DNA of 64,000 nucleotides from Gemmatimonadota bacterium (lineage in GTDB: Bacteria > Gemmatimonadota > Gemmatimonadetes > Gemmatimonadales > GWC2-71-9): NCBI GenBank assembly GCA_003222085.1, contig QHUK01000010.1, forward strand, positions 3,688 to 67,687. Reading direction: 5' to 3'. Of the stretch, positions 13,886 to 25,100 are shown piece by piece. A program made the position numbers and the translations under genes. The stretch's first letter is position 1, and every line of letters begins with the position of its first letter. The notes under the pieces are model-generated. The model searched no databases. It was not told where the DNA came from and worked only from the letters and a program-made list of their open reading frames with translations.

Positions 13886-14893
13886 CTAGCTCGAGTCGGG
13901 AAAGCTCGCAAGCGTGCCGACGCTCCCCCCCCTCTCTGCCATCATCTCCACGAGCGCCCGGATGGTCCCCGGCGCGTTGCCCTCGAGCCGGTTGTTCACG
14001 AGGATCAGCGCCTCCAAATGGCGCCGCATGACCTCGGCGACCAGGCGCCGCAGATCGTGTCGCACCTCCGGCTGGGGATCGCGGATGCGGTCGTAGGGCT
14101 CGAACAGCCTTACCGCGTCGGCGTACGCCCGCCCGGGGCGGAGCAGCGCGCGCGCCACGGTGAAGCCGGCGGGGAACGCCCACGGCAGCTCGAGCTGCTC
14201 GCCGATCGCCGGCATTTCGTTCCACGAATTGAACACATGGGCCACCCCGTGCCGCGCCAGCACCGCACCGTGGGCGTCGGTCAAGAGCTCCCGGTTCCGC
14301 AGCTCCACCGCGTAGCGGAAGTCGCGGGGCAGTCGCCGCAGGAAGCCGTCGAGCTCCTCCGCCCACCTGGCCGCCTCGGGGAGATCATGCCCTCGCATCG
14401 CCTGAAACTCGAACACGAAGGCGCCGGCATGGTCCGAGAACGCCCGCGCGTACGGCCCGAGCACTGCCTCCTTGAAAAGATCAGCGTTCAAGAAGTCGGG
14501 GTTCCGCTGACCCGCGAGGTTGCCCCAGCGCGGGTCCTGCGTGAAGCGCCGCGCCGTGATCCGATCCCACACCTTGCTCACGCACGGAAAGCCGGGGGGC
14601 AACGCCCGCGCGTACGCCGTGAGCACCTCTTCTGACGGCGGCTCGTAGAACGCGCTGTCGATCCCCACCGTGCGGAACAAGGGATAGCGCACGTACTCCT
14701 CGAGCCGACGGGCCGGCTGGGCGCTGCGATAGGGCCGATGATAGACCTCGCCCGCCCAGCCGTCGTACGTCCACGTGGAGGTACCGAACCGAATGGACGG
14801 CGGGATGTGTTGGGCGAGCGAGATCAGGGCGGCGGGCGGTGCAGGCAGCGCGGCGACATCGTCGAAGAGATTCGGCTGATCACGCCTGGACAT
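13886..14893 (-). CDS. DUF72 (UPF0759) family protein
   Basis: The N-terminal 'IRFGTSTWTYDGWAGEVY' signature and the roughly 335 aa length fit the family. Confidence 0.75.
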   Translation of the reverse strand: MSRRDQPNLFDDVAALPAPPAALISLAQHIPPSIRFGTSTWTYDGWAGEVYHRPYRSAQPARRLEEYVRYPLFRTVGIDSAFYEPPSEEVLTAYARALPPGFPCVSKVWDRITARRFTQDPRWGNLAGQRNPDFLNADLFKEAVLGPYARAFSDHAGAFVFEFQAMRGHDLPEAARWAEELDGFLRRLPRDFRYAVELRNRELLTDAHGAVLARHGVAHVFNSWNEMPAIGEQLELPWAFPAGFTVARALLRPGRAYADAVRLFEPYDRIRDPQPEVRHDLRRLVAEVMRRHLEALILVNNRLEGNAPGTIRALVEMMAERGGSVGTLASFPDSS

Positions 14894-15039
14894 TAGAAGT
14901 TGAAATATATCAATAGCTTACCATCGAAGTAACGGGCCTTGCGATGTCCTTGATCTTCGGGATATATTCGGGTCCCATTTACTACCCGACAATGCCAAAA
15001 ACTCCCCACCTGACGAGCGAGTCCGCGGCTTGCTGTTGG

Positions 15040-16284
15040 ATGCCGCTGTTCGCGTTGCGCTCCGAACTGGCGCGGCGGCCCGAACTCGCGTCCCACCCCG
15101 TGGCGCTCGTCGCACCCGACACCGCTCGCACCCCTCGGGTGTGGCAGGTCGTGCCGCTCGCCCGGCACGCCGGGGTGAAGCCGGGAATGACGGTCAGCCA
15201 GGCGATCGGACTCTGTCCCGCGCTCAAGCTGTGCGAGCCCGACCCGGTGCATTACGACGAGCAGTTCGAGCAGCTCATCGCTGCACTTGCCGTGGTAAGC
15301 CCCGTCGTGGAGCCGGTGGAGTTGGGGCGGGTGTTCGTGGGCACCGACGGATTGGAAGGGCTGTACGGAGGGCCGGAGGAGATCGTCGAGGCGATCAAAC
15401 GCGGAACGCGGAAGTGGGAACGCGGAACAGGCGAGCGATCTTCCAGCCCCTGTTCCGCGTTCCGCGTTCCGCGTTTCGCGTTTCGGGTGGGCTGGGGCCG
15501 CGGGAAATTCGTTTCCTGGGTGGCCGCGACCCGCGCAAAACCCGGAGCTGCGGTCATAGTGCCGGTGGGAGGGGAGGCGAAGTTTCTCGCTTCCCAGCCG
15601 CTCGCCGTGCTCCCGCTCGACCCCGACACACATCGCCGGCTGCAGCAGCTCGGCGTCAAGACGCTGGGCGCGCTCGTCGCGCTTCCGGAGGAAGCCGTCG
15701 TGTCGCAATTCGGTGGCCCGGGCCGGCGGCTGTGGCGGCTCGCGGCGGGACTCGTGTCGGAGCCGGTGGTGGGACGGGTCGTGCCCGAGCCGATCGTGGC
15801 CGCTCTCACGTTTTTCACCCCGGTCGGCGAGCGGGACCTGCTCGCCCACGCACTGGACAAGCTCGTCGACCGCGCGCTCGGAGATCCGCGTCGCAGCGGC
15901 TGGCGCGTGCAGGTCGTCCGGGTGCGCGCCGAGCTCGAGCACGGCGCCTCCTGGCTCGTCACCGCGACCCTCAAAGACCCATCCGCGACGCGGGAGCACA
16001 TCGCGGCACCGCTCAAGACGCAGCTCGAGCGGTCGCCGCCCGTCGGTGCGGTCGAGCGGCTCGTCGTCGAGTTTACCGCCTTCGCTCCCGGCACCGCCGA
16101 GCTGCAGCTGTTCGCGCATGATGCGAGCGCCGCGGCTCGCGCCGGGCGACGGCGTGCGCTCCAAGGCGCCGCCCGGGAGATCGCGCTCCGAATCAGACGG
16201 CCGATGCTGTATCACGTCATCGAGGTGCAGCCATGGTCCCGCCTTCCCGAGCGGCGGTACGCGCTGATCGACTATGAACCGTGA
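15040..16284 (+). CDS. imuB: ImuB-like Y-family DNA polymerase homolog (mutasome subunit)
   Basis: 'MPLFALRSELARRPELASHPVALV...ARHAGVKPGMTVSQA' is the typical ImuB N-terminus, and the gene lies directly upstream of dnaE2. The ATG at 15040 is chosen over the listed 14944 start. There is a possible clamp-binding 'LQLF'. Confidence 0.8.
   Translation: MPLFALRSELARRPELASHPVALVAPDTARTPRVWQVVPLARHAGVKPGMTVSQAIGLCPALKLCEPDPVHYDEQFEQLIAALAVVSPVVEPVELGRVFVGTDGLEGLYGGPEEIVEAIKRGTRKWERGTGERSSSPCSAFRVPRFAFRVGWGRGKFVSWVAATRAKPGAAVIVPVGGEAKFLASQPLAVLPLDPDTHRRLQQLGVKTLGALVALPEEAVVSQFGGPGRRLWRLAAGLVSEPVVGRVVPEPIVAALTFFTPVGERDLLAHALDKLVDRALGDPRRSGWRVQVVRVRAELEHGASWLVTATLKDPSATREHIAAPLKTQLERSPPVGAVERLVVEFTAFAPGTAELQLFAHDASAAARAGRRRALQGAAREIALRIRRPMLYHVIEVQPWSRLPERRYALIDYEP
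15397..15486. repeat. GGAACGC-type heptamer hairpin element inside imuB
   Basis: The left arm is ggaacgc ggaagtg ggaacgc ggaacag. The loop is 17 nt. The right arm is cctgttcc gcgttcc gcgttcc gcgtttc gcgtttc. The ORF stays open and reads KRGTRKWERGTGERSSSPCSAFRVPRFAFRV. Confidence 0.8.
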
Positions 16285-16582
16285 ACAAACGCGGAAGTTG
16301 GAGCGCGGAACGCGGAACAATGCGGACAGGCTTCGGGCGCTCAACGTTCAGCAGCAGGTGAAGGTCGATCTGGATGACGGTGGAGTGCCGGTAGTCGTGA
16401 CACGGGAAACGGGAGATGGGAAACGTGTTGAGTCGATCGGTGAGACGTGGCGGATCGATGATGAATGGTGGCGATTGCCTATTGTGCGGCGATATGTGGA
16501 AGTGATTCTCGAAGGTGGCGGGCGGGTTGTGTTGTTCGAAGATCTGTCGACGGGCGAGTGGTGGATCCAGAAGCCCGCCTGA
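16274..16582 (+). CDS. Small ORF between imuB and dnaE2 with a 'WRIDDEWWR' motif (possibly a DUF6504-like ImuB-associated domain)
   Basis: The 102 aa ORF ends '...GETWRIDDEWWRLPIVRRYVEVILEGGGRVVLFEDLSTGEWWIQ'. It overlaps the imuB stop in the +1 frame. Its first ~20 codons are repeat-derived, so the true start is uncertain. The family assignment is from memory. Confidence 0.55.
   Translation: MNREQTRKLERGTRNNADRLRALNVQQQVKVDLDDGGVPVVVTRETGDGKRVESIGETWRIDDEWWRLPIVRRYVEVILEGGGRVVLFEDLSTGEWWIQKPA
16287..16320. repeat. GGAACGC-type heptamer array (left arm of a split pair)
   Basis: The sequence is aaacgc ggaagtt ggagcgc ggaacgc ggaacaa. It lies immediately after the imuB stop. Confidence 0.75.
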
Positions 16583-16617
16583 ACGTTCCGCGTTCCGACT
16601 TCCGCGTTCCAACTTCC
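16583..16617. repeat. GGAACGC-type heptamer array, inverted (right arm of a split pair)
   Basis: The sequence is acgttcc gcgttcc gacttcc gcgttcc aacttcc. Its reverse complement, ggaagtt ggaacgc ggaagtc ggaacgc ggaacgt, matches the 16287-16320 arm. It fills the whole spacer between the small ORF stop and the dnaE2 ATG. Confidence 0.75.
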
Positions 16618-19600
16618 ATGTACGTCGAGCTCCACTGCCACTCCGCTTTCTCGTTCCTCGACGGCGCCTCGCTCCCCGAGCAGCTCGCGCTCACCGCGTC
16701 GCAGCTCGGCTACCCCGCGCTCGCGCTCACCGACCACAACGGCCTGTACGGCTCGATGGCGTTCGCGCAAGAAGCGAAACAGCTCGGCATCCAGGCGATC
16801 ACCGGCGCGGAGCTGACCCTACTCGACGGCTCTCACGTGACGATTCTCGCGGAGACGCCTGAGGGGTACGCGAACCTCTGCCGGTTGATTACGGAGGCTC
16901 ATCTCGGTCGTGAAGACCGGCGCGACCCGCGGCTCGATTTCGCCTCGCTCGAAGCCCGGCACGCAGGGCTCATCGTGCTGTCGGGATGCCGCAACGGGCT
17001 GCTCCCTCAGGTGCTGCGGCGCGACGGCCCGGCCGCTGTCCGTCGCGTCGCCGAGCGGTGTCGTGCGGTGTTCGGGAAGGACAACTTTGTCGTCGAGCTG
17101 CAGCGCAATTATGTACGGGGCGATCTGGCCCTGACCCGGGCGCTGAAAGCCCTCGCGGACGACGCGCAGCTGGGCGTCGTGGCGTCGGGCAACGTGCATT
17201 ATCACGCCCGCCCGCGTCACCGTCTGCACGACGTGCTGGTGGCGATCCGGCACCGCACCACGCTCGACGGCTCGCACGACGTGCGGCATGCGAACAGCGA
17301 GTTCTTCCTGCGCCCGCACGAAGAGGTCGAGGCGCTGTTTCGTGACTGTCCGAATGCTGTCGCTAATACTCTAGCCCTGGCGGAGCGCTGCCGGGGGTTC
17401 GATCTCACGCGGGATCTGGGATATCGGTTTCCCGATTTCAACGGCGCCGAGCGCGCCCCCGCCCCGCGAGCGCTCGCCGAGCTGTGCCGGGCGAGACTGG
17501 AAGAGCGCTACCCTCCGGATTCCCCCCACCGCGACGCCGCGGAGCGGCGGCTCGCCGAGGAGCTGCGGCTGGTCGAGCACCATGCGCTCTCGGGGTTCTT
17601 TCTCGTCTATCACGACCTGTTCGACCTGGCCCGGGAAGTCGCCGTCGACGTGCGGCGCGGCTCGCGGCGGGCGCAGGGCGGCCTGCTCCCCGGTCGCGGT
17701 CGCGGCTCATCGGTCTCCTCCGTCGTGTGCTACCTGCTCGGCCTCTCGCACATCGACCCGGTCGCGACCCGGCTGTTCATCGGGCGGTTCCTGAGCGAGA
17801 CCCTCGCCTCGGTGCCGGACATCGACCTCGATTTCCCGCGCGAGATCCGCGAGGAGCTGATCCGGCGGGTGTACAAGCGGTACGGCGACGAGCACGTCGG
17901 GCTCGTCTGCTCGTTCCCCACCTATCGCCTGCGCTCGACGGTGCGGGAGATCGGCAAGGCGCTCGATCTGCCGCCGGGCGAGATCGAGCAGGTCGCGAAA
18001 CTGGCGGACCGGCGATCCGGCGGACTGGCGGACGAATTGGACCAGCTTCCCGGATTCGCGGGGCGACGGAGCGCGCCGCTCTGGAAAGAGCTGTGCGAGC
18101 TCGCCGAGGAGATCGCGGGGCTGCCGCGGCACATTTCCCAGCACGTGGGCGGGATGGTCATCTCGAGCCGGCCGCTCGTGGAGATCGTGCCGCTCGAGCG
18201 CGCCGCCATGGAAGACCGGGTGGTATGCCAGTGGGACAAGGATGCCTGCGACGACGCACGCTTCATCAAGATCGACTTCCTGGCGCTCGGCATGCTGTCG
18301 CTCGTGGAAGAGTGTGTCGAGCGGATCGCCGTGCACCAGGGAGCGCCACCCGACCTCTCGCGCATCGACTTCGAGGACCCCGCGGTGTACGACCGCATCT
18401 GCCGGGGCGACACGGTTGGACTGTTCCAGATCGAGAGCCGGGCGCAGATCCAGATGATCCGTCGCACCCGACCCACCAACCTCGAAGACCTGGCGGTCGA
18501 GGTCGCGATCGTGCGGCCCGGCCCGATCGTGGGAGGAGCGGTGAACCCGTACGTGCGACGCCGCGAGGAGCAGCGCCGCGCCCGGGCCGCCGGTCGCGCC
18601 TACGAGCCGCCGCTCGAGCATCCCCTGCTCAAGGAAGCGCTCGACGAAACGCTCGGCGTGATCCTCTATCAGGACCAGGTGCTGCAGGTGTGCCAGGCGC
18701 TCGCCGGATTCACGGCGGGCCAGGCCGAGGCCTTGCGGCGGGCGATGAGCCGGCGGCGCAGCCGCGAGTTGATGGCGGGGTTCTGGGAGGAGTTCAAGGA
18801 GGGCGCGGCGGCGCGCGGCGTCCCCGAGCAGACAGCAGAGCGCGTGTTCACACAGGTGATCGCGTTCTCGGAGTTCGGTTTCCCCAAGTCGCACGCCGCG
18901 GCGTTCGGCCTGCTCGCCTACCAGTCGGCGTGGCTCAGGCATTATCACCCGGCCGAGTACTATTGCGCCCTCTTCAACAACCAGCCGATGGGGTTCTACT
19001 CGCTCGACGCGCTGGGACGCGATGCCCAGCGGAACGGCGTCGAGATCCGGCTGCCGGATGTGAATCTGAGTGACGTATGGAGCACGATAGAGCGGGAAAG
19101 GGGAAACGGGAAACGGGAAACGGGAGGCGTTCGGATCGGGCTTGGGTTCGTGCGCGACTGGAGCGAGGAGACGGCGACGGCGGTCGTGATCGAGCGCGAG
19201 CGGCGCGGGCCGTACGCGAGTATCGGCGACTTCGTGCGCCGGGCGCCGCCCAAGCTCAAGCGCACCGCGATCGAGCATCTCGTGTGGGTGGGAGGATGCG
19301 ACGGCTTCGGGCTCACCCGGCGCGAGCTCCTGTGGCAGGTGGGGCTGTGGCTGCCTCCGGAATCGGAGCACGGGGTGGACGCGCGCGCACGGCGGCAGCT
19401 CGAGCTGGCGCTCAATCATCCCCACGAGGGACTCCGATTCGGCGGCCTCGAGGCGGCCGAGCGGCTGCTCGCGGAGTATGACGTCCTGGGGTTCGCCGCG
19501 AGCGGCCATCCGCTCTCGCTGCTCCGCGGGGCGCTGCCGCCGGGTATCGTGCAGAGCGACACGCTCCCCCGGCTCGAGCACGGAGCGTGGGTCGAAGTCG

Positions 19601-19953
19601 CCGGGCTGGTGGTCGCGCGCCAGCGACCCGAGACGGCGAAGGGATTCATATTTGTGCTGGTCGAGGATGAGGCGGGGATGGTGAACGTGATCGTGCGGCC
19701 CGACGTGTACGAGCGCTATCGCACCGCGGTCCGCGGCGAGCCGCTCTTGTGGGTGCGCGGTAAGCTCGCCAAGGACGACGGGACGGTGAACGTGATCGCG
19801 GAAGAGGCGAGGGGGCTCAAAGTCGGAACGTGGAACGCGGAAGGCGGAACGGACGGCGGGCCTGCCAGTTCCGCGTTCCCACTTCCGCATTCCGCGTTCG
19901 ACTTTCTTAAGTCCATGCGTCGCCTCGCGCCGGAGTCCAAGGATTGGGGGTAG
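16618..19953 (+). CDS. dnaE2: Error-prone DNA polymerase III alpha-like subunit DnaE2
   Basis: It has the PHP-domain N-terminus 'MYVELHCHSAFSFLDGASLPEQL...LALTDHNGLYG', a length of about 1111 aa, and sits in an imuB-dnaE2 arrangement. Confidence 0.9.
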   Translation: MYVELHCHSAFSFLDGASLPEQLALTASQLGYPALALTDHNGLYGSMAFAQEAKQLGIQAITGAELTLLDGSHVTILAETPEGYANLCRLITEAHLGREDRRDPRLDFASLEARHAGLIVLSGCRNGLLPQVLRRDGPAAVRRVAERCRAVFGKDNFVVELQRNYVRGDLALTRALKALADDAQLGVVASGNVHYHARPRHRLHDVLVAIRHRTTLDGSHDVRHANSEFFLRPHEEVEALFRDCPNAVANTLALAERCRGFDLTRDLGYRFPDFNGAERAPAPRALAELCRARLEERYPPDSPHRDAAERRLAEELRLVEHHALSGFFLVYHDLFDLAREVAVDVRRGSRRAQGGLLPGRGRGSSVSSVVCYLLGLSHIDPVATRLFIGRFLSETLASVPDIDLDFPREIREELIRRVYKRYGDEHVGLVCSFPTYRLRSTVREIGKALDLPPGEIEQVAKLADRRSGGLADELDQLPGFAGRRSAPLWKELCELAEEIAGLPRHISQHVGGMVISSRPLVEIVPLERAAMEDRVVCQWDKDACDDARFIKIDFLALGMLSLVEECVERIAVHQGAPPDLSRIDFEDPAVYDRICRGDTVGLFQIESRAQIQMIRRTRPTNLEDLAVEVAIVRPGPIVGGAVNPYVRRREEQRRARAAGRAYEPPLEHPLLKEALDETLGVILYQDQVLQVCQALAGFTAGQAEALRRAMSRRRSRELMAGFWEEFKEGAAARGVPEQTAERVFTQVIAFSEFGFPKSHAAAFGLLAYQSAWLRHYHPAEYYCALFNNQPMGFYSLDALGRDAQRNGVEIRLPDVNLSDVWSTIERERGNGKRETGGVRIGLGFVRDWSEETATAVVIERERRGPYASIGDFVRRAPPKLKRTAIEHLVWVGGCDGFGLTRRELLWQVGLWLPPESEHGVDARARRQLELALNHPHEGLRFGGLEAAERLLAEYDVLGFAASGHPLSLLRGALPPGIVQSDTLPRLEHGAWVEVAGLVVARQRPETAKGFIFVLVEDEAGMVNVIVRPDVYERYRTAVRGEPLLWVRGKLAKDDGTVNVIAEEARGLKVGTWNAEGGTDGGPASSAFPLPHSAFDFLKSMRRLAPESKDWG
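19094..19128. repeat. GGGAAAC heptamer tandem array inside dnaE2
   Basis: The array is gggaaag gggaaac gggaaac gggaaac gggaggc, translated as ERERGNGKRETGG. A related array, gggaaac gggagat gggaaac, occurs at 16404-16424 in the small ORF. Confidence 0.7.
19825..19899. repeat. GGAACGC-type heptamer hairpin element in the dnaE2 3' coding region
   Basis: The left arm is ggaacgt ggaacgc ggaaggc ggaacgg. The loop is 15 nt. The right arm is gttcc gcgttcc cacttcc gcattcc gcgttc. It shares a 21-nt identical stretch (gttccgcgttcccacttccgc) with the reverse complement of the imuB element arm. Confidence 0.8.
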
Positions 19954-19958
19954 CGGCA

Positions 19959-19986
19959 TTGACATCGTCACGGCGCCGGATAGCCT
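19959..19986 (+). promoter_or_regulatory. Candidate sigma70-type promoter giving a leaderless transcript
   Basis: The layout is TTGACA (19959-19964), 16 nt, then TAGCCT (19981-19986). The ATG of the downstream gene lies 6 nt after the -10 element. Confidence 0.35.
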
Positions 19987-19992
19987 TGCTCC

Positions 19993-21057
19993 ATGCCGAT
20001 CCCCACCGAACCCATTGGCAGCATCCCCAGACCCCCGGAGCTCGTCGCGGGGATGCAGCAGCTCGCCACCGGTCGCCTCACGCGCGACCAGTTCGCCCGA
20101 CTCCAGGACGCGGCGATCCACGACACCATCCGGCGGTTCGAAGCGACCGAGTCCCCCGTCATCACCGACGGTGAGCAGGCGAAACCCAGCTTCGCCACCT
20201 ACCCGATCCACGGGCTCACGAACCTCGCACCCGACGGCGTCACGATCCCGTTCGCCGACGGACACACGCGGCAGCTCCCCCGGCTCACCGCCGGGCCGTT
20301 CCGCTATCAGACGTACGCCGACGCATATCTCGCGAGCGCGCGAGCGCACGCCCACGTGCCCGTCAAACAGGCGGTGATCGCGGCCTCGGCGCTCAGCCTG
20401 CTCTATCCGGAGGACGGCATCACAGGGTATCCGCGCGAAGCGTTTCTCAAGGATCTCGTGCGCGAGGCGGAGACGGACATCCGCCGGTGTCTCGCGAAGG
20501 GTGCCCACGTGGTGCAGCTCGATTTCACCGAAGGCCGGCTCGCGGTGAAGTTCGATCCATCGCTGGGCCTGCTCAGGATGTTCGTGGACCTGAACAATCA
20601 GGTACTCGAGCGCTTCACGGCCGACGAGCGCCGCAGGATCGGCGTTCACACCTGTCCGGGCGGCGACCGGGACTCGACGCACAGCGCGGACGTGGACTAC
20701 GCGGAGCTCCTGCCCACGCTGTTTGAGCTGAAGGCGACGAACTTCTACATCCAGTGCGCGAGTGAGCCGGACCGCGGCAGGGTGCTGCGCCTCATGAAGG
20801 AGCACAGCAAGCCCGGCCAGCGGATTTTCGTCGGCGTGATCGATCCGATCGATCCACGGGTTGAGACGCCCGACGAAGTCCGGGACCGGGTCCTGGAGGC
20901 GGCGGAGTACATCGCGCTCGACCGGCTCGGCACCACCGACGACTGCGGCTTCGCGCCCTTCGGCGACGACACCTCCACCGACCGCGAGACGGCATTCGCC
21001 AAGATCCGCGCACGCGTGGCCGGCACCGCGCTGGCGGCCCGGGCGCTGCGGGCGTGA
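19993..21057 (+). CDS. Cobalamin-independent methionine synthase (MetE C-terminal-like) family protein
   Basis: At 354 aa, '[14 protein letters not shown]' and '...[14 protein letters not shown]...[13 protein letters not shown]' are typical of the COG0620/methionine synthase II family. Confidence 0.7.
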
Positions 21058-22105: not shown

Positions 22106-25100
22106 AGGCGGGCCGGCTCTTTCCGAGATACGTCCGCACGAGCGGAGCCACGCGCCCGCGCACCAGAGCGGACTTGAGCCGCTCCCGTTCATCCGGCGCG
22201 ACCTCCACCAGGTACCGCTCGCCGCTCCCAGCTCCCTCCTTGATCGCGACGGGGATCCCGTCTCGATACAGGATCCGGTTCGTCGCAACCCCGGCGAGCA
22301 CGTCTCCCGGCGTCACGATCCCTACCAGGTTGAGCGGGTCGGCCCCGCTCACGGCCACCAGCTCCCCGCGGGGCTCCTCGCGCCGCACGCGGCGGAGCAA
22401 CCCCACGGCTTCCGGCAGGGCGTATTGCTCGCCCGAGAACCCGCCCACGAAGCGCCCGCCGCGAATCTCGCCGCGCGCCTCGAGCCGGCGGTACACCCGC
22501 AGGATGTCGCGCCACGGCGTGAGCAATGTCTCGCGCGTCACCAGCCGACGGAACACCACCCCGTAGCGGCGCAGCAGCTGCCACGCGACCGCTTCCGCGA
22601 CGGCCTCTTCCTGGAGCGGCGCTGCCAGGCGCCGCACCCGCGACCATCGCCCCGCCGTCTCGACCCCGAACGGCGCTACACGCCCCCGTCGCCGGAACCC
22701 GCCCCCCCCGATAGGGCGGCGCCGGTCGGACGGCACGAGCAGCGCTCGCAGCCCGGCGAAGCTGTCCGAGGTCACCAGCCCCCACGCGACCAGCTCCCCG
22801 AGTCCCTTCTCGACTTCGGTGCGTAACAGTCCGGTCGCGTTCGTGAGGTCGCCAAAGAACGACGCGCCGCGCTCGTCGAGCGCCTCGAGCACGGCCCGGG
22901 CCGAGTGTGACAGTGACAGGTGCGCTGGATCGGCCTGCACCGTGAGGGACTGCCAGACCACTCCCCGCTCCCTGCGAAACAGCGCAATCGGCGTGGTGCG
23001 AATCGGCCCGGCTTTGTGACCCCCCCCGTTCGACGGCGCCGCCGGCGACAACCGGCCCCAGGCGATCTCCCCGGACAGGCACAGGCCGTCGAGCCACAGA
23101 GGGTCGTAGTCGCCGAGCCGCGCGGGGAGCACGTCCGCCTCCCAGGCCGCCGCCGGCGCCTCGTATCCGTCGAGCAGCTCGAGCACTGCACCAAGCCCGT
23201 CCGGCCCCTCGGCCCGGGCATCGGGTGCGGCGCGCTGCCACTCGAGCAGGAACCGCATGAAGTCCGCCGCGGTGACCGGCTCGATTTCCTGGCGCAGCCG
23301 GTCGAGCGTGTAGCGGTGGATGCGGGCGAGCAGGCGCCGCTCGCACCATTCGAGCTCCACGACGCCGGGAGTGAACCGGCCGCGCAGCACGAAGCCCTCG
23401 TGCTCGAGCGCGCCGAGCGCGAAGTCCACGTCCCCGGCCGGGACGCCCAGCGATCGTGCGATGTCGGCGGCCGTCGTGGGACCGACCGCCTCGAGCCGGC
23501 CGCGCACCAGCTCGCGCACCGCATCCTCGCGCGTCCATACCTTGGCCCGATCTCGTTCCGGCACCACCAGCGGCGGCTCGCACCGAGCTCCCGGGAACAC
23601 CGCCTCCAGCATCGGCAGCCGCTCGGCGGCCACGCACAGGTGCGGGTCGTGCGACAGCATCCCCGCTCGTCCAGCTCTCGCCAGCTCCTCGAAATACCCT
23701 TGCTGTTCCGCGTTCCGCGTTCCGACTTCCGCGTTGGGAATGGCGCCCATCACGAGCAACGCATCGTGCAGCTCGTCGGCGCTCGCGACCTCCGGCCACG
23801 CCTCCTCCTTCACCCGATCAATCGCCGCCTGATCGAGCTTGCCCAGCTCCTCGGCGGTCTTCACGTCAAGGCCGCGCCGTGTGATCACGGCCTGAGTGCG
23901 GCGCTCCTCGAGCGGCGCGTCGTCGAGGAAGGCGTAGGGCTTGGCATTGATCACCTCGTGGGCGAGCGGCGACGGCTCCGTCGTGTCGCGCGCCACGAGC
24001 GTGAACTGTCCCGCCGCCATCCCCTCGAGCACGCCCTTCAGACCCGGGAAGTCCATCGCTTCCAGCAGACAGTCCGCGATGGTCTGCTGCACCAGCGGAT
24101 GGTCGGGAATCTCCCGGTCCCCCACGAGGTTCTCGGGGCACGCGAGCTGGTCGGGGAACACGGCGGCCACCAGGTCCTCCGCGTCCATGCGCTGGAGCGG
24201 CGTGGGCACCTTCTTCCCGCCTCGCGCGCGCAGCACGGCGAGCGCCCGCGTCGCGTTCCAGCGCCAGCGCGAGCCGAACATCGGCGCGTCCAGCATCGCC
24301 TGCACCAGCAGGTGCTCCGCCGTCTCGGGCTTCAGATACTGGAACACGTCCTCGAGCGGGAAGCTGTGCTGGGGCCCGAGCGACAGGACGATCGCGTCCT
24401 CGGTGGCCGCGGCCTGGAGCTCGAAGTTGAAGCTGCGGCAGAACCGCTTGCGGAGCGCGAGTCCCCACGCGCGGTTCACCCGACTCCCGAACGGCGCGTG
24501 CAGCACCAGCTGCATCCCCCCCGCCTCGTCGAAGAAGCGCTCCAACACGAGCGTCTCCTGGGTCGGGGTGACCCCGAGGATCCTCTTCGAGGCCTCGAGA
24601 TACTCGACCATCTGCCGGGCCGCGGCCTCGGGGACGCCCGGGATCTCGCGCGCGAGCCACGTATTCGCCTCGCGGACGTCACCTAGCCGGGCGTCGACGT
24701 CCCGGCGCAGGCGAGACACCTCTTGCGATAGCTCCGGCGTGCGACCCGGCGCCTCCCCCAGCCAGAACGGGATCGACGGGGGCTGGCCCTGGGCGTCCAC
24801 GACGCGCACCTGGCCCGACTCGATCCTCTCGATCCGATACGATCGGTTGCCCAGCTGGAAGATGTCGCCGGGCATGCTCTCGATGGCGAAATCCTCGTTG
24901 AGCGTTCCGACGAAGGTCTCTGTCGGCTCGAGGATAACGCGGTAGTCGCCGATGTCCGGAATCGCCCCGCCCGACGTGAGCGCGGCGAGTCGGGCGCCGC
25001 GCCGCGCGCGCAGCCGGCGATTCACGCCATCGTAGTGGACGTAGGCGCCGCGCCGCCCGCGCCGCGTCGTGAATCCGTCGGCGAGCATCTGCACCACGGC

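Follow-up and report, generated by a model that had tools for sequence, protein, structure and literature searches.

The window analysed here, a stretch of 64,000 nucleotides (G000:C14:3688-67687) from a Gemmatimonadota genome assembly that we call G000 (3.54 Mb in 70 contigs, 68.8% G+C, 93% complete), contains the gene imuB and, inside its coding region, a palindrome made of tandem 7-nt units that can form a long hairpin. An earlier reading of this DNA from its letters alone (the sequence-only reading) had described a palindromic heptamer element in imuB, which is confirmed by the inverted-repeat search, the predicted fold and the motif counts given below. The gene and the parts of the element are as follows:

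14992-16284, forward strand: imuB, a catalytically inactive Y-family polymerase homolog; its open reading frame (ORF) opens at 14944
15397-15431, forward strand: left, G-rich arm, AAACGCG GAACGCG GAAGTGG GAACGCG GAACAGG, encoding KRGTRKWERGTG
15432-15448, forward strand: loop of 17 nt, CGAGCGATCTTCCAGCC, with the family loop core GCGAGCGAYC, flipped relative to the orthologous loops
15449-15483, forward strand: right, C-rich arm, CCTGTTC CGCGTTC CGCGTTC CGCGTTT CGCGTTT, encoding about CSAFRVPRFAF

The ORF is open throughout from 14944 to 16284, as had been claimed, and its translation includes IVEAIKRGTRKWERGTGERSSSPCSAFRVPRFAFRVGWGRGKF exactly as written earlier. Because most close homologs are 430 aa long, translation probably starts at Met17, at position 14992. 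The protein has a Y-family fold whose closest relatives in the Protein Data Bank are DNA polymerase IV, and it is without the usual acidic residues: read from the sequence, WMPLFAL replaces the D-x-D of DinB and TDGLEG replaces DE. The gene dnaE2 follows 334 nt downstream. In Pfam, PF00817 (IMS) matches residues 32-153 only (E = 4.8e-15), and the match ends just inside the insert.

The inverted-repeat search gave two arms of 35 nt each that are 89% complementary and 17 nt apart, and by manual count they pair as 31 Watson-Crick pairs, 1 G·U pair and 3 mismatches. Accordingly, the in-frame palindrome at 15397 stands as first proposed, while its dimensions are corrected, the stem being about 35 bp rather than about 29 and the element 87 nt (15397-15483, 29 codons) rather than 90; it adds about 29 residues to ImuB. 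Each arm is a run of 4-5 tandem 7-nt units of the type GGAACGC plus a GGAAGTG variant, and the motif GGAACGCGGAAC (at most one mismatch) is found 15 times in the window compared to 0.95 expected. The RNA fold of 15390-15495 reaches a predicted -68.3 kcal/mol versus -43.4 ± 3.7 in 200 dinucleotide shuffles (z = -6.8, 0 shuffles as good), in agreement with the claim of a strong hairpin inside a translesion gene. An Rfam scan of 14800-20100 returned nothing above the gathering threshold, and a match of the hairpin to a miRNA precursor in Rfam was set aside as a generic hairpin artefact (30.6 vs 96 bits).

Aligned to 17 distant ImuB homologs (28-45% identical, one at 55%), the protein of G000 has about 23-29 extra residues exactly at the insert; the distant homologs pass from a helix to the 'RxGxAxGKF' strand without this segment, which is the position where homologs had been said to run straight into the 'vGiA' strand. 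We modelled ImuB with AlphaFold2 from an alignment of distant homologs (mean predicted local distance difference test score, pLDDT, of 84). In this model the peptide of the left arm prolongs the helix 144-163 and the rest of the insert is predicted as coil of low confidence (pLDDT 58-65, and below 50 at 169-173) that directly precedes the strand 181-186, a prediction that agrees with the surface loop suspected from the letters. Collectively, these results show that the hairpin is an insertion in a permissive, low-confidence surface loop of ImuB, and that imuB tolerates it in frame.

In G000 the element belongs to a family of heptamer hairpins scattered over the genome. A BLAST search with the imuB element against its own genome yielded 101 matches on many contigs, and a motif scan found 54 complete hairpins of the GGAACGC family together with 28 lone arms, which bears out the suspicion of a mobile or expanding repeat. 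The G-rich arm is 5′ and the C-rich arm 3′ in 54 of 54 complete hairpins, the family ends read (T/A)(G/A)AACGCGG...CCGCGTT, and the loops span 10-75 nt, with the core GCGAGCGAYC present in 7 of the 54. For 28 of the 54, a stop codon lies within 4 nt of one end, and copies elsewhere in the genome adjoin pdh, queA and rsmD. Furthermore, when arrays are counted by period under one rule, G000 has 238 with period 7, and 28, 23 and 28 with periods 8, 9 and 10, respectively; over 20 families of heptamer units occur side by side, among them GGAACGC, GGGAAAC, GGATTGC, GGGAGCA and GGATGAC. Five of the 54 hairpins are genic and all five are in frame (imuB, dnaE2, ksgA, a comF-like phosphoribosyltransferase gene and a linker between two aldehyde dehydrogenase (ALDH) domains), a figure that is approximate as genic copies were called from spanning ORFs, the pattern of G+C at third codon positions (GC3) and Pfam; the others occupy spacers or leaders. 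For these coding calls a codon log-likelihood classifier of our own was discarded, as it was too noisy and failed on the imuB control. The units GGAACGC, GGAATGC, GGAGTGC and GGATTGC are free of stop codons in all six frames.

Orthologs of ImuB from the genus (n = 19, 71-87% identical to that of G000) show a fixed site with a changing unit; the genomes other than G000 were read through searches. The hairpin or a remnant of it is found in 19 of 19 between the peptides ...IVEAI and RVGWG, and the boundaries of the element in imuB are constant within 1-2 nt across all unit types. The forms seen at the site are:

GGAACGC unit (type C): peptide RGTRNAERGT
GGAATGC unit (type T): peptide MRNAECGM
GGAGTGC unit (type G): peptide CGVRSAECGI
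GGATTGC unit (type TT): peptide LRIADCGLRI
mosaic C/T arms: also present among the orthologs
half forms: G015 and G002, right arm lost
shortened form: G005
decayed form: G016

Since the unit, and hence the peptide, differs among the 19 orthologs while the hairpin is kept, it is the palindrome that is conserved and not the peptide, and orthologs holding this peptide with no nucleotide repeat were not found. Among eight orthologs of equal length 91% of cells pair, and both sides change in 10 of 32 pairs, which is reached by 2 of 500 column shuffles. The mismatches of the arms on the sense strand are G·U in 37 cases vs A·C in 30, and for this reason pairing of RNA in the transcript is not visibly favoured over symmetry of the DNA. 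As the half forms (G015, G002) and the decayed form (G016) retain an intact imuB, the hairpin is dispensable. The site has been occupied since at least the ancestor of the genus.

The same comparison speaks to the notion that the insert is an artefact of assembly or, at the level of the protein, an adaptation in which the low-complexity peptide was selected for ImuB function, a notion to which we give almost no credence. G000 comes from a metagenome assembly, where repeats can be misassembled, and the left arm is modelled as an extension of a helix; but more than 100 independent metagenomic and genome assemblies have an insert at this site with an intact frame, and the peptide varies (RGTRKWERGT, CGVRNAECGI, LRIADCGLRI) while the nucleotide palindrome persists.

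Alleles from metagenomes and other species expand, contract and nearly vanish, always in frame, the variation that the sequence-only reading had proposed to look for. In 120 metagenomic homologs (at least 80% identical) the segment measures 19-56 residues, with indels of 40→33, 38→31 and 46→39 residues, that is 7 codons, 21 nt or 3 units, and with near-total deletions in P0082, P0076 and P0119. The allele P0100 (L029, JGI contig Ga0137397_10082920), whose ImuB is 85% identical, has at the site, around AINEAVRRTFPPVRL, no more than a mini-palindrome of 26 nt that belongs to the GGCGGTCA octamer family. Its peptide EAVRRTFPPV resembles the un-inserted loop of distant homologs, and P0100 was considered as an ancestral empty site; this was rejected, the DNA being the GGCGGTCA mini-palindrome and the gene being nested among hairpin-bearing alleles. 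The GGCGGTCA family also occurs elsewhere on the L029 contig and in G003.

The orientation of the loop changes as well. The loop of G000 aligns to the reverse complement of the loops of 7 out of 7 orthologs (scores 2 to 12) and not directly (-2 to -6), while these seven align directly with one another, from which it follows that the loop or the whole element was flipped. Taken together, the alleles show that unit, orientation and length at the imuB site turn over rapidly under a constraint on the reading frame.

Much of this turnover could in principle arise in place, in a coding microsatellite subject to local slippage and intrastrand template switching (quasipalindrome correction) and to a shared mutational pressure such as deamination of methylated CpG (GGAACGC to GGAATGC), with no exchange between loci. 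The indels in steps of 21 nt fit such a process, as do the difference of one CpG-to-TpG transition per unit between the C and T types, the C/T mosaics in which one arm has changed, and the higher-order 14-nt alternations within arms (GGAATGC/GGAGTGC and GGAACGC/GGAAGTS). A mutational hotspot cannot, however, account for changes of A to G or T, nor for the appearance of unrelated units at the same site; very close relatives differ at about 10-16 positions of the element where the rest of the gene is about 3% diverged; and the flipped loop, with a loop core common to paralogs, indicates exchange between copies. Accordingly, we hold evolution purely in place to be very unlikely.

We found that the unit at the imuB site is related to the repeats of the genome that carries it. 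Exact trimers of each unit were counted per genome; because the genomes are related, we claim no formal statistic for the match. The counts, by type of the imuB site, are:

type C or C/T (G000, G014, G023, G006, G022, G017): 16-79 GGAACGC trimers, 5-23 GGARTGC trimers
type T/G (G012, G020, G010, G009, G004, G015, G002, G005): 0-2 GGAACGC trimers, 15-121 GGARTGC trimers (1 in G005, which is 65% complete)
type TT (G001, G021, G024, G003, G007): 3-31 GGAACGC trimers, 1-30 GGARTGC trimers
site decayed (G016): 0 GGAACGC trimers, 0 GGARTGC trimers

For the C and T/G types the imuB unit is the dominant family of that genome. Genomes with a TT-type imuB fit less well: G001 is rich in TT trimers (69), G007 has 2 and G003 no exact one. 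G016 (95% complete) has none of the three counted families, and its imuB, dnaE2 and ksgA sites are all without a hairpin. The three families are likewise missing from G042 and G011. The pattern of a unit that follows the genome is repeated at the C-terminal site of dnaE2, in ksgA and at an intergenic site. Furthermore, on ImuB trees (single-gene, insert removed) the unit types are interleaved, and T, TT or C is found in alleles that lie less than 0.03 apart in branch length.

Beyond the genus, GGAAYGC arrays were found in 7 of the 82 sampled genera of the phylum, and the matching genomes are all in the family of G000 except one. In the other genera of this family the same ImuB loop holds GGGGAAC, GGTGAGT, CGGACGGT, GAGGGGC, other heptamer or octamer arrays and hairpins, or nothing.

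Further members of the family lie in the window, most of them in the same gene cassette:

16274-16582, forward strand: small ORF of 102 aa between imuB and dnaE2, conserved and bracketed by two arms
16287-16318, forward strand: lone G-rich arm, placed after the imuB stop and before the main part of the small ORF
16583-16617, forward strand: lone C-rich arm that exactly fills the gap from the stop of the small ORF to the ATG of dnaE2
16618-19953, forward strand: dnaE2, an error-prone paralog of the DNA polymerase III alpha subunit, with PHP, DNA_pol3_alpha, finger, HHH_6 and OB domains all matched
19819-19905, forward strand: second complete in-frame hairpin, 16 codons before the dnaE2 stop, encoding KVGTWNAEGGTDGGPASSAFPLPHSAFDF
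23700-23735, forward strand: lone C-rich arm (half element), GTTCCGCGTTCCGCGTTCCGACTTCCGCGTT, with no partner within 200 nt

The dnaE2 hairpin sits between the OB domain and the conserved C-terminal tail FLKSMRRxAPESKDWG. Every genus ortholog has an array of C, T/G, TT, GGGATGC, GGGAGAC or GGGGAAA type at this site apart from G016 and G018, where its place is taken by a linker of about the same length that is free of repeats and, in G016, rich in proline. In ksgA (rRNA adenine dimethylase; G000:C50:21470-21582, locus L057, spanned by PF00398) the two arms fall in different loops, with 63-80 nt of native conserved coding sequence, LTVVHGDALRVDW, between them (63 nt in G000). Across most of the genus these arms are present in seven unit types, both arms usually having the same unit, G003 excepted; arms are missing from G016 and G042. 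At the small ORF, too, the arms of relatives are of each one's own unit type, or are missing (G021, G016, G002, L029).

Outside genes, an intergenic site carries C in G000 and G041, T in G008, TT in G014 and G/T in G012, and is empty in G010. The spacer between pdh E2 and E3 (G000:C62:103150-103235, L006; set against G014, G008, G012 and G010) is filled right after the E2 stop codon in G000 and G041 (TGA, 85 nt, GGGG), where G014 reads TGA-AT-GGGG; no target duplication of at least 2 nt is present at this empty site, the one site examined.

We favour, with moderate confidence, the reading that the hairpin is a tolerated repeat element that is homogenised with its paralogs by exchange at the DNA level, with no adaptation of ImuB. 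According to this reading, the 87-nt palindrome would be a copy of a lineage-specific dispersed family (a 7-nt run, a short loop and an inverted run) that behaves like repetitive extragenic palindromic (REP), MITE (miniature inverted-repeat transposable element) or long simple sequence repeat (SSR) DNA, and selection on imuB would require only that the frame be retained and that the insert be free of stop codons. With stop-free units under a frame constraint, length changes would therefore be steps of 21 nt (3 units, 7 codons) or other multiples of three, and slippage within the arrays would yield the 21-nt steps. The arms would not be preserved by descent but repeatedly overwritten through exchange with paralogous copies, the likely route being ectopic gene conversion, or template switching where a hairpin or array stalls or breaks replication. 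Such overwriting would explain why the unit tracks the abundant family of the genome, why loops flip and why arms are mosaic. The hairpin probably has no dedicated role in ImuB, and a likely side effect would be a strong structure in the mRNA or single-stranded DNA within the mutasome operon.

Several points weigh against this reading. Exchange and the mechanism behind it are what we infer, an exchange event having never been seen directly, and neutrality is assumed. Units of different type share 5-6 of 7 bases and are a poor substrate for RecA-type conversion, and the unrelated units GGGGCTC, GGTGTCC, GGGATGC and GGGAGAC at orthologous ksgA and dnaE2 sites are explained badly by conversion alone. 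Arms that bracket native coding sequence, as in ksgA and around the small ORF, are not explained by a single inserted palindrome. Furthermore, G021 (31 C vs 17 TT) and G024 (28 vs 14) hold a TT-type imuB despite an excess of C, and unit types are mixed between sites within G014, G012, G007 and G021. Finally, the relatives do not count as independent cases, and recombination or chimeric contigs from metagenomes may obscure the ImuB tree.

The main rival of the exchange reading is recurrent and targeted insertion, in which the ImuB loop, dnaE2, ksgA and the intergenic sites are preferred targets where a fresh hairpin of the genome's own family displaces its predecessor, possibly because a pre-existing hairpin attracts the next element. 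The clean case of presence and absence at the pdh spacer shows that whole units can be gained or lost, and both the unrelated unit types at one site in different species and the quite different arrays, or none, in the ImuB loop of other genera fit this view. On the other hand, boundaries in imuB that are constant within 1-2 nt are hard to reach by repeated insertion with exact removal of the predecessor, mosaic arms (C/T, T/TT) resemble partial replacement, and the ksgA arms around native sequence are not simple insertions. In addition, no transposase candidate was found: Y1_Tnp/RAYT (PF01797) was not found in G000, an absence that in a metagenome-assembled genome (MAG) of 93% completeness is not proof, while the same search was positive in 6 of 14 control genomes. 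A parent insertion sequence (IS) with the same terminal repeats was not seen either, although no systematic survey of transposases was made, and the genes that lie between two elements are queA, a NUDIX gene and a gene for an AraC-type regulator. We consider recurrent insertion possible but improbable.

Neither exchange nor targeted insertion accounts for the arms that bracket native sequence. A so far undescribed, transposase-independent rewriting process, in which a trans-acting factor, or a repair pathway acting at breaks in hairpins and arrays, re-installs the current 7-nt unit at fixed landing pads (the loops of ImuB, DnaE2 and KsgA, and gene junctions), sometimes as arms on either side of native coding sequence, is an explanation that we entertain tentatively and do not expect to be correct. 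If true, it would add to the ways in which bacterial repeats are known to move or to evolve in concert.

The position of the arms in the imuB-dnaE2 cassette raises the question of regulation in cis. The structure could be selected in the imuB-dnaE2 mRNA, where it might, for example, be cut by RNase III, make ribosomes pause or couple translation, or in the DNA, where it would limit or time the expression of a mutagenic polymerase cassette. Its predicted stability, the pairing that is retained through two-sided changes and the persistence of the site across the genus are what such a role would lead one to expect, and five arms or hairpins of the family are found within the 4.6-kb cassette, one of which (16583-16617) abuts the start codon of dnaE2 with no Shine-Dalgarno sequence visible before the ATG. 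Against it, half forms, near-complete deletions and a fully decayed form all occur with an intact imuB, and the sense strand has no excess of G·U over A·C. Most copies are non-coding and near unrelated genes, those in frame are also found in ksgA, the comF-like gene and the ALDH gene, and the family shows no particular tie to the mutasome; a link to DNA-repair genes at large was rejected on the same distribution of copies. If pairing were selected in cis, moreover, the match of the unit to the rest of the genome would be left unexplained. A dedicated regulatory role in the mutasome operon is thus possible but unsupported, and cis-regulation as the reason for the hairpin appears to us decidedly improbable.

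Several known systems resemble the family in part. Heptameric long SSRs have been described before: GGGAATC of Xanthomonas and GGGGAYT/STRR of Nostoc occur in convergent (inverted) pairs, with 70-75 cases in Xanthomonas of two convergent arrays able to form stem-loops (Rehm et al. 2015, PMC4692102), and TAACTGA repeats occur in Beggiatoaceae, cyanobacteria and Bacteroidetes (MacGregor 2015, PMC4679880). Units in these systems are lineage-specific and their mechanism of spread is not known (PMC4692102, PMC4679880). As far as those descriptions go, the G000 family is alike in having tandem 7-nt units and tens to hundreds of dispersed arrays, mostly near gene ends, and differs in that the hairpin form is the rule (54 complete vs 28 lone arms) and that several copies are translated in frame inside conserved genes. 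Unlike the Xanthomonas and Nostoc type, GGAACGC has no tracts of three or more G, and because the units have GG rather than tracts of 3-4 G, a rationale based on G-quadruplexes is inapplicable here. A change of unit in step with the dominant family of the genome at orthologous sites is not mentioned in the parts consulted of PMC4692102 and PMC4679880.

Rickettsia palindromic elements (RPEs) are palindromes in frame in unrelated housekeeping genes, at positions compatible with the fold (Ogata et al. 2000, reviewed in PMC10969869). Palindromes of the imuB family are likewise in frame in unrelated genes and translated as an extra peptide. RPEs, however, are about 100-150 bp long, conserve both sequence and peptide, have no 7-nt tandem units and are mostly genic, whereas in G000 only 5 of 54 copies lie within genes, the encoded peptide varies and the arms change from species to species. 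Like REP and REPIN elements, the G000 hairpins are short and imperfectly palindromic, come in dozens of copies that follow directly on stop codons, and persist vertically at orthologous sites; unlike them, the family has no GTAG/CGTC ends, its arms are tandem heptamers of variable number, and several unit families coexist. MITEs (Correia, ERIC, Chunjie) resemble the family in their inverted repeats at the ends, a length of about 80-150 nt, in-frame copies that occasionally lie in genes, and polymorphism for presence or absence. The family differs in that no target-site duplication was found at the one empty site, that the stretch between its arms is short and varies (10-75 nt), and that its arms may be separated by native coding sequence, as in ksgA and at the small ORF. 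In intragenic invertons, inverted repeats flank a segment that occurs in both orientations; in imuB the flip is one between species, the loop of G000 against those of seven orthologs. In sum, the element of G000 works like convergent heptamer SSRs, sits like RPEs and, as far as examined, lacks the defining marks of REP-RAYT systems and MITEs.

Heptamer SSRs are over-represented in many bacteria and their origin and spread are unexplained. The present analysis adds a quantified link between unit and genome, a flipped loop, steps of 21 nt, an empty site without duplication and the ksgA bracket. About 25 related genomes and over 100 alleles from metagenomes make the imuB locus an unusually clean experiment of nature, in which the site stays put inside a conserved gene, selection guards the frame, and unit, orientation and length turn over quickly and in step with the genome, so that two questions become directly testable, namely how dispersed short repeats stay homogeneous, and whether they move by transposition, conversion or repair synthesis. 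In practice, such inserts inflate and diversify protein loops and break homology-based domain calls, as in the Pfam IMS match that stops at the insert, and they place very stable hairpins inside an error-prone polymerase operon.

Two further in-frame copies lie at G000:C55:12273-12343 and G000:C23:3038-3093. The first, in the comF-like phosphoribosyltransferase gene, is placed between ...GAF and VLVDDV; the second links two aldehyde dehydrogenase domains in one ORF of 798 aa, which may be two genes fused through the element. In the window, imuA or imuA' does not lie directly upstream of imuB, where the neighbour is a divergent DUF72 gene (Pfam), and close protein homologs carry Gemmatimonadetes or Gemmatimonadales MAG labels. 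The small ORF at 16274-16582, for which no Pfam family was matched, overlaps the imuB stop and has the motifs WRIDDEWWR and VVLFEDL...GEWW; it is kept across the genus and on metagenome contigs.

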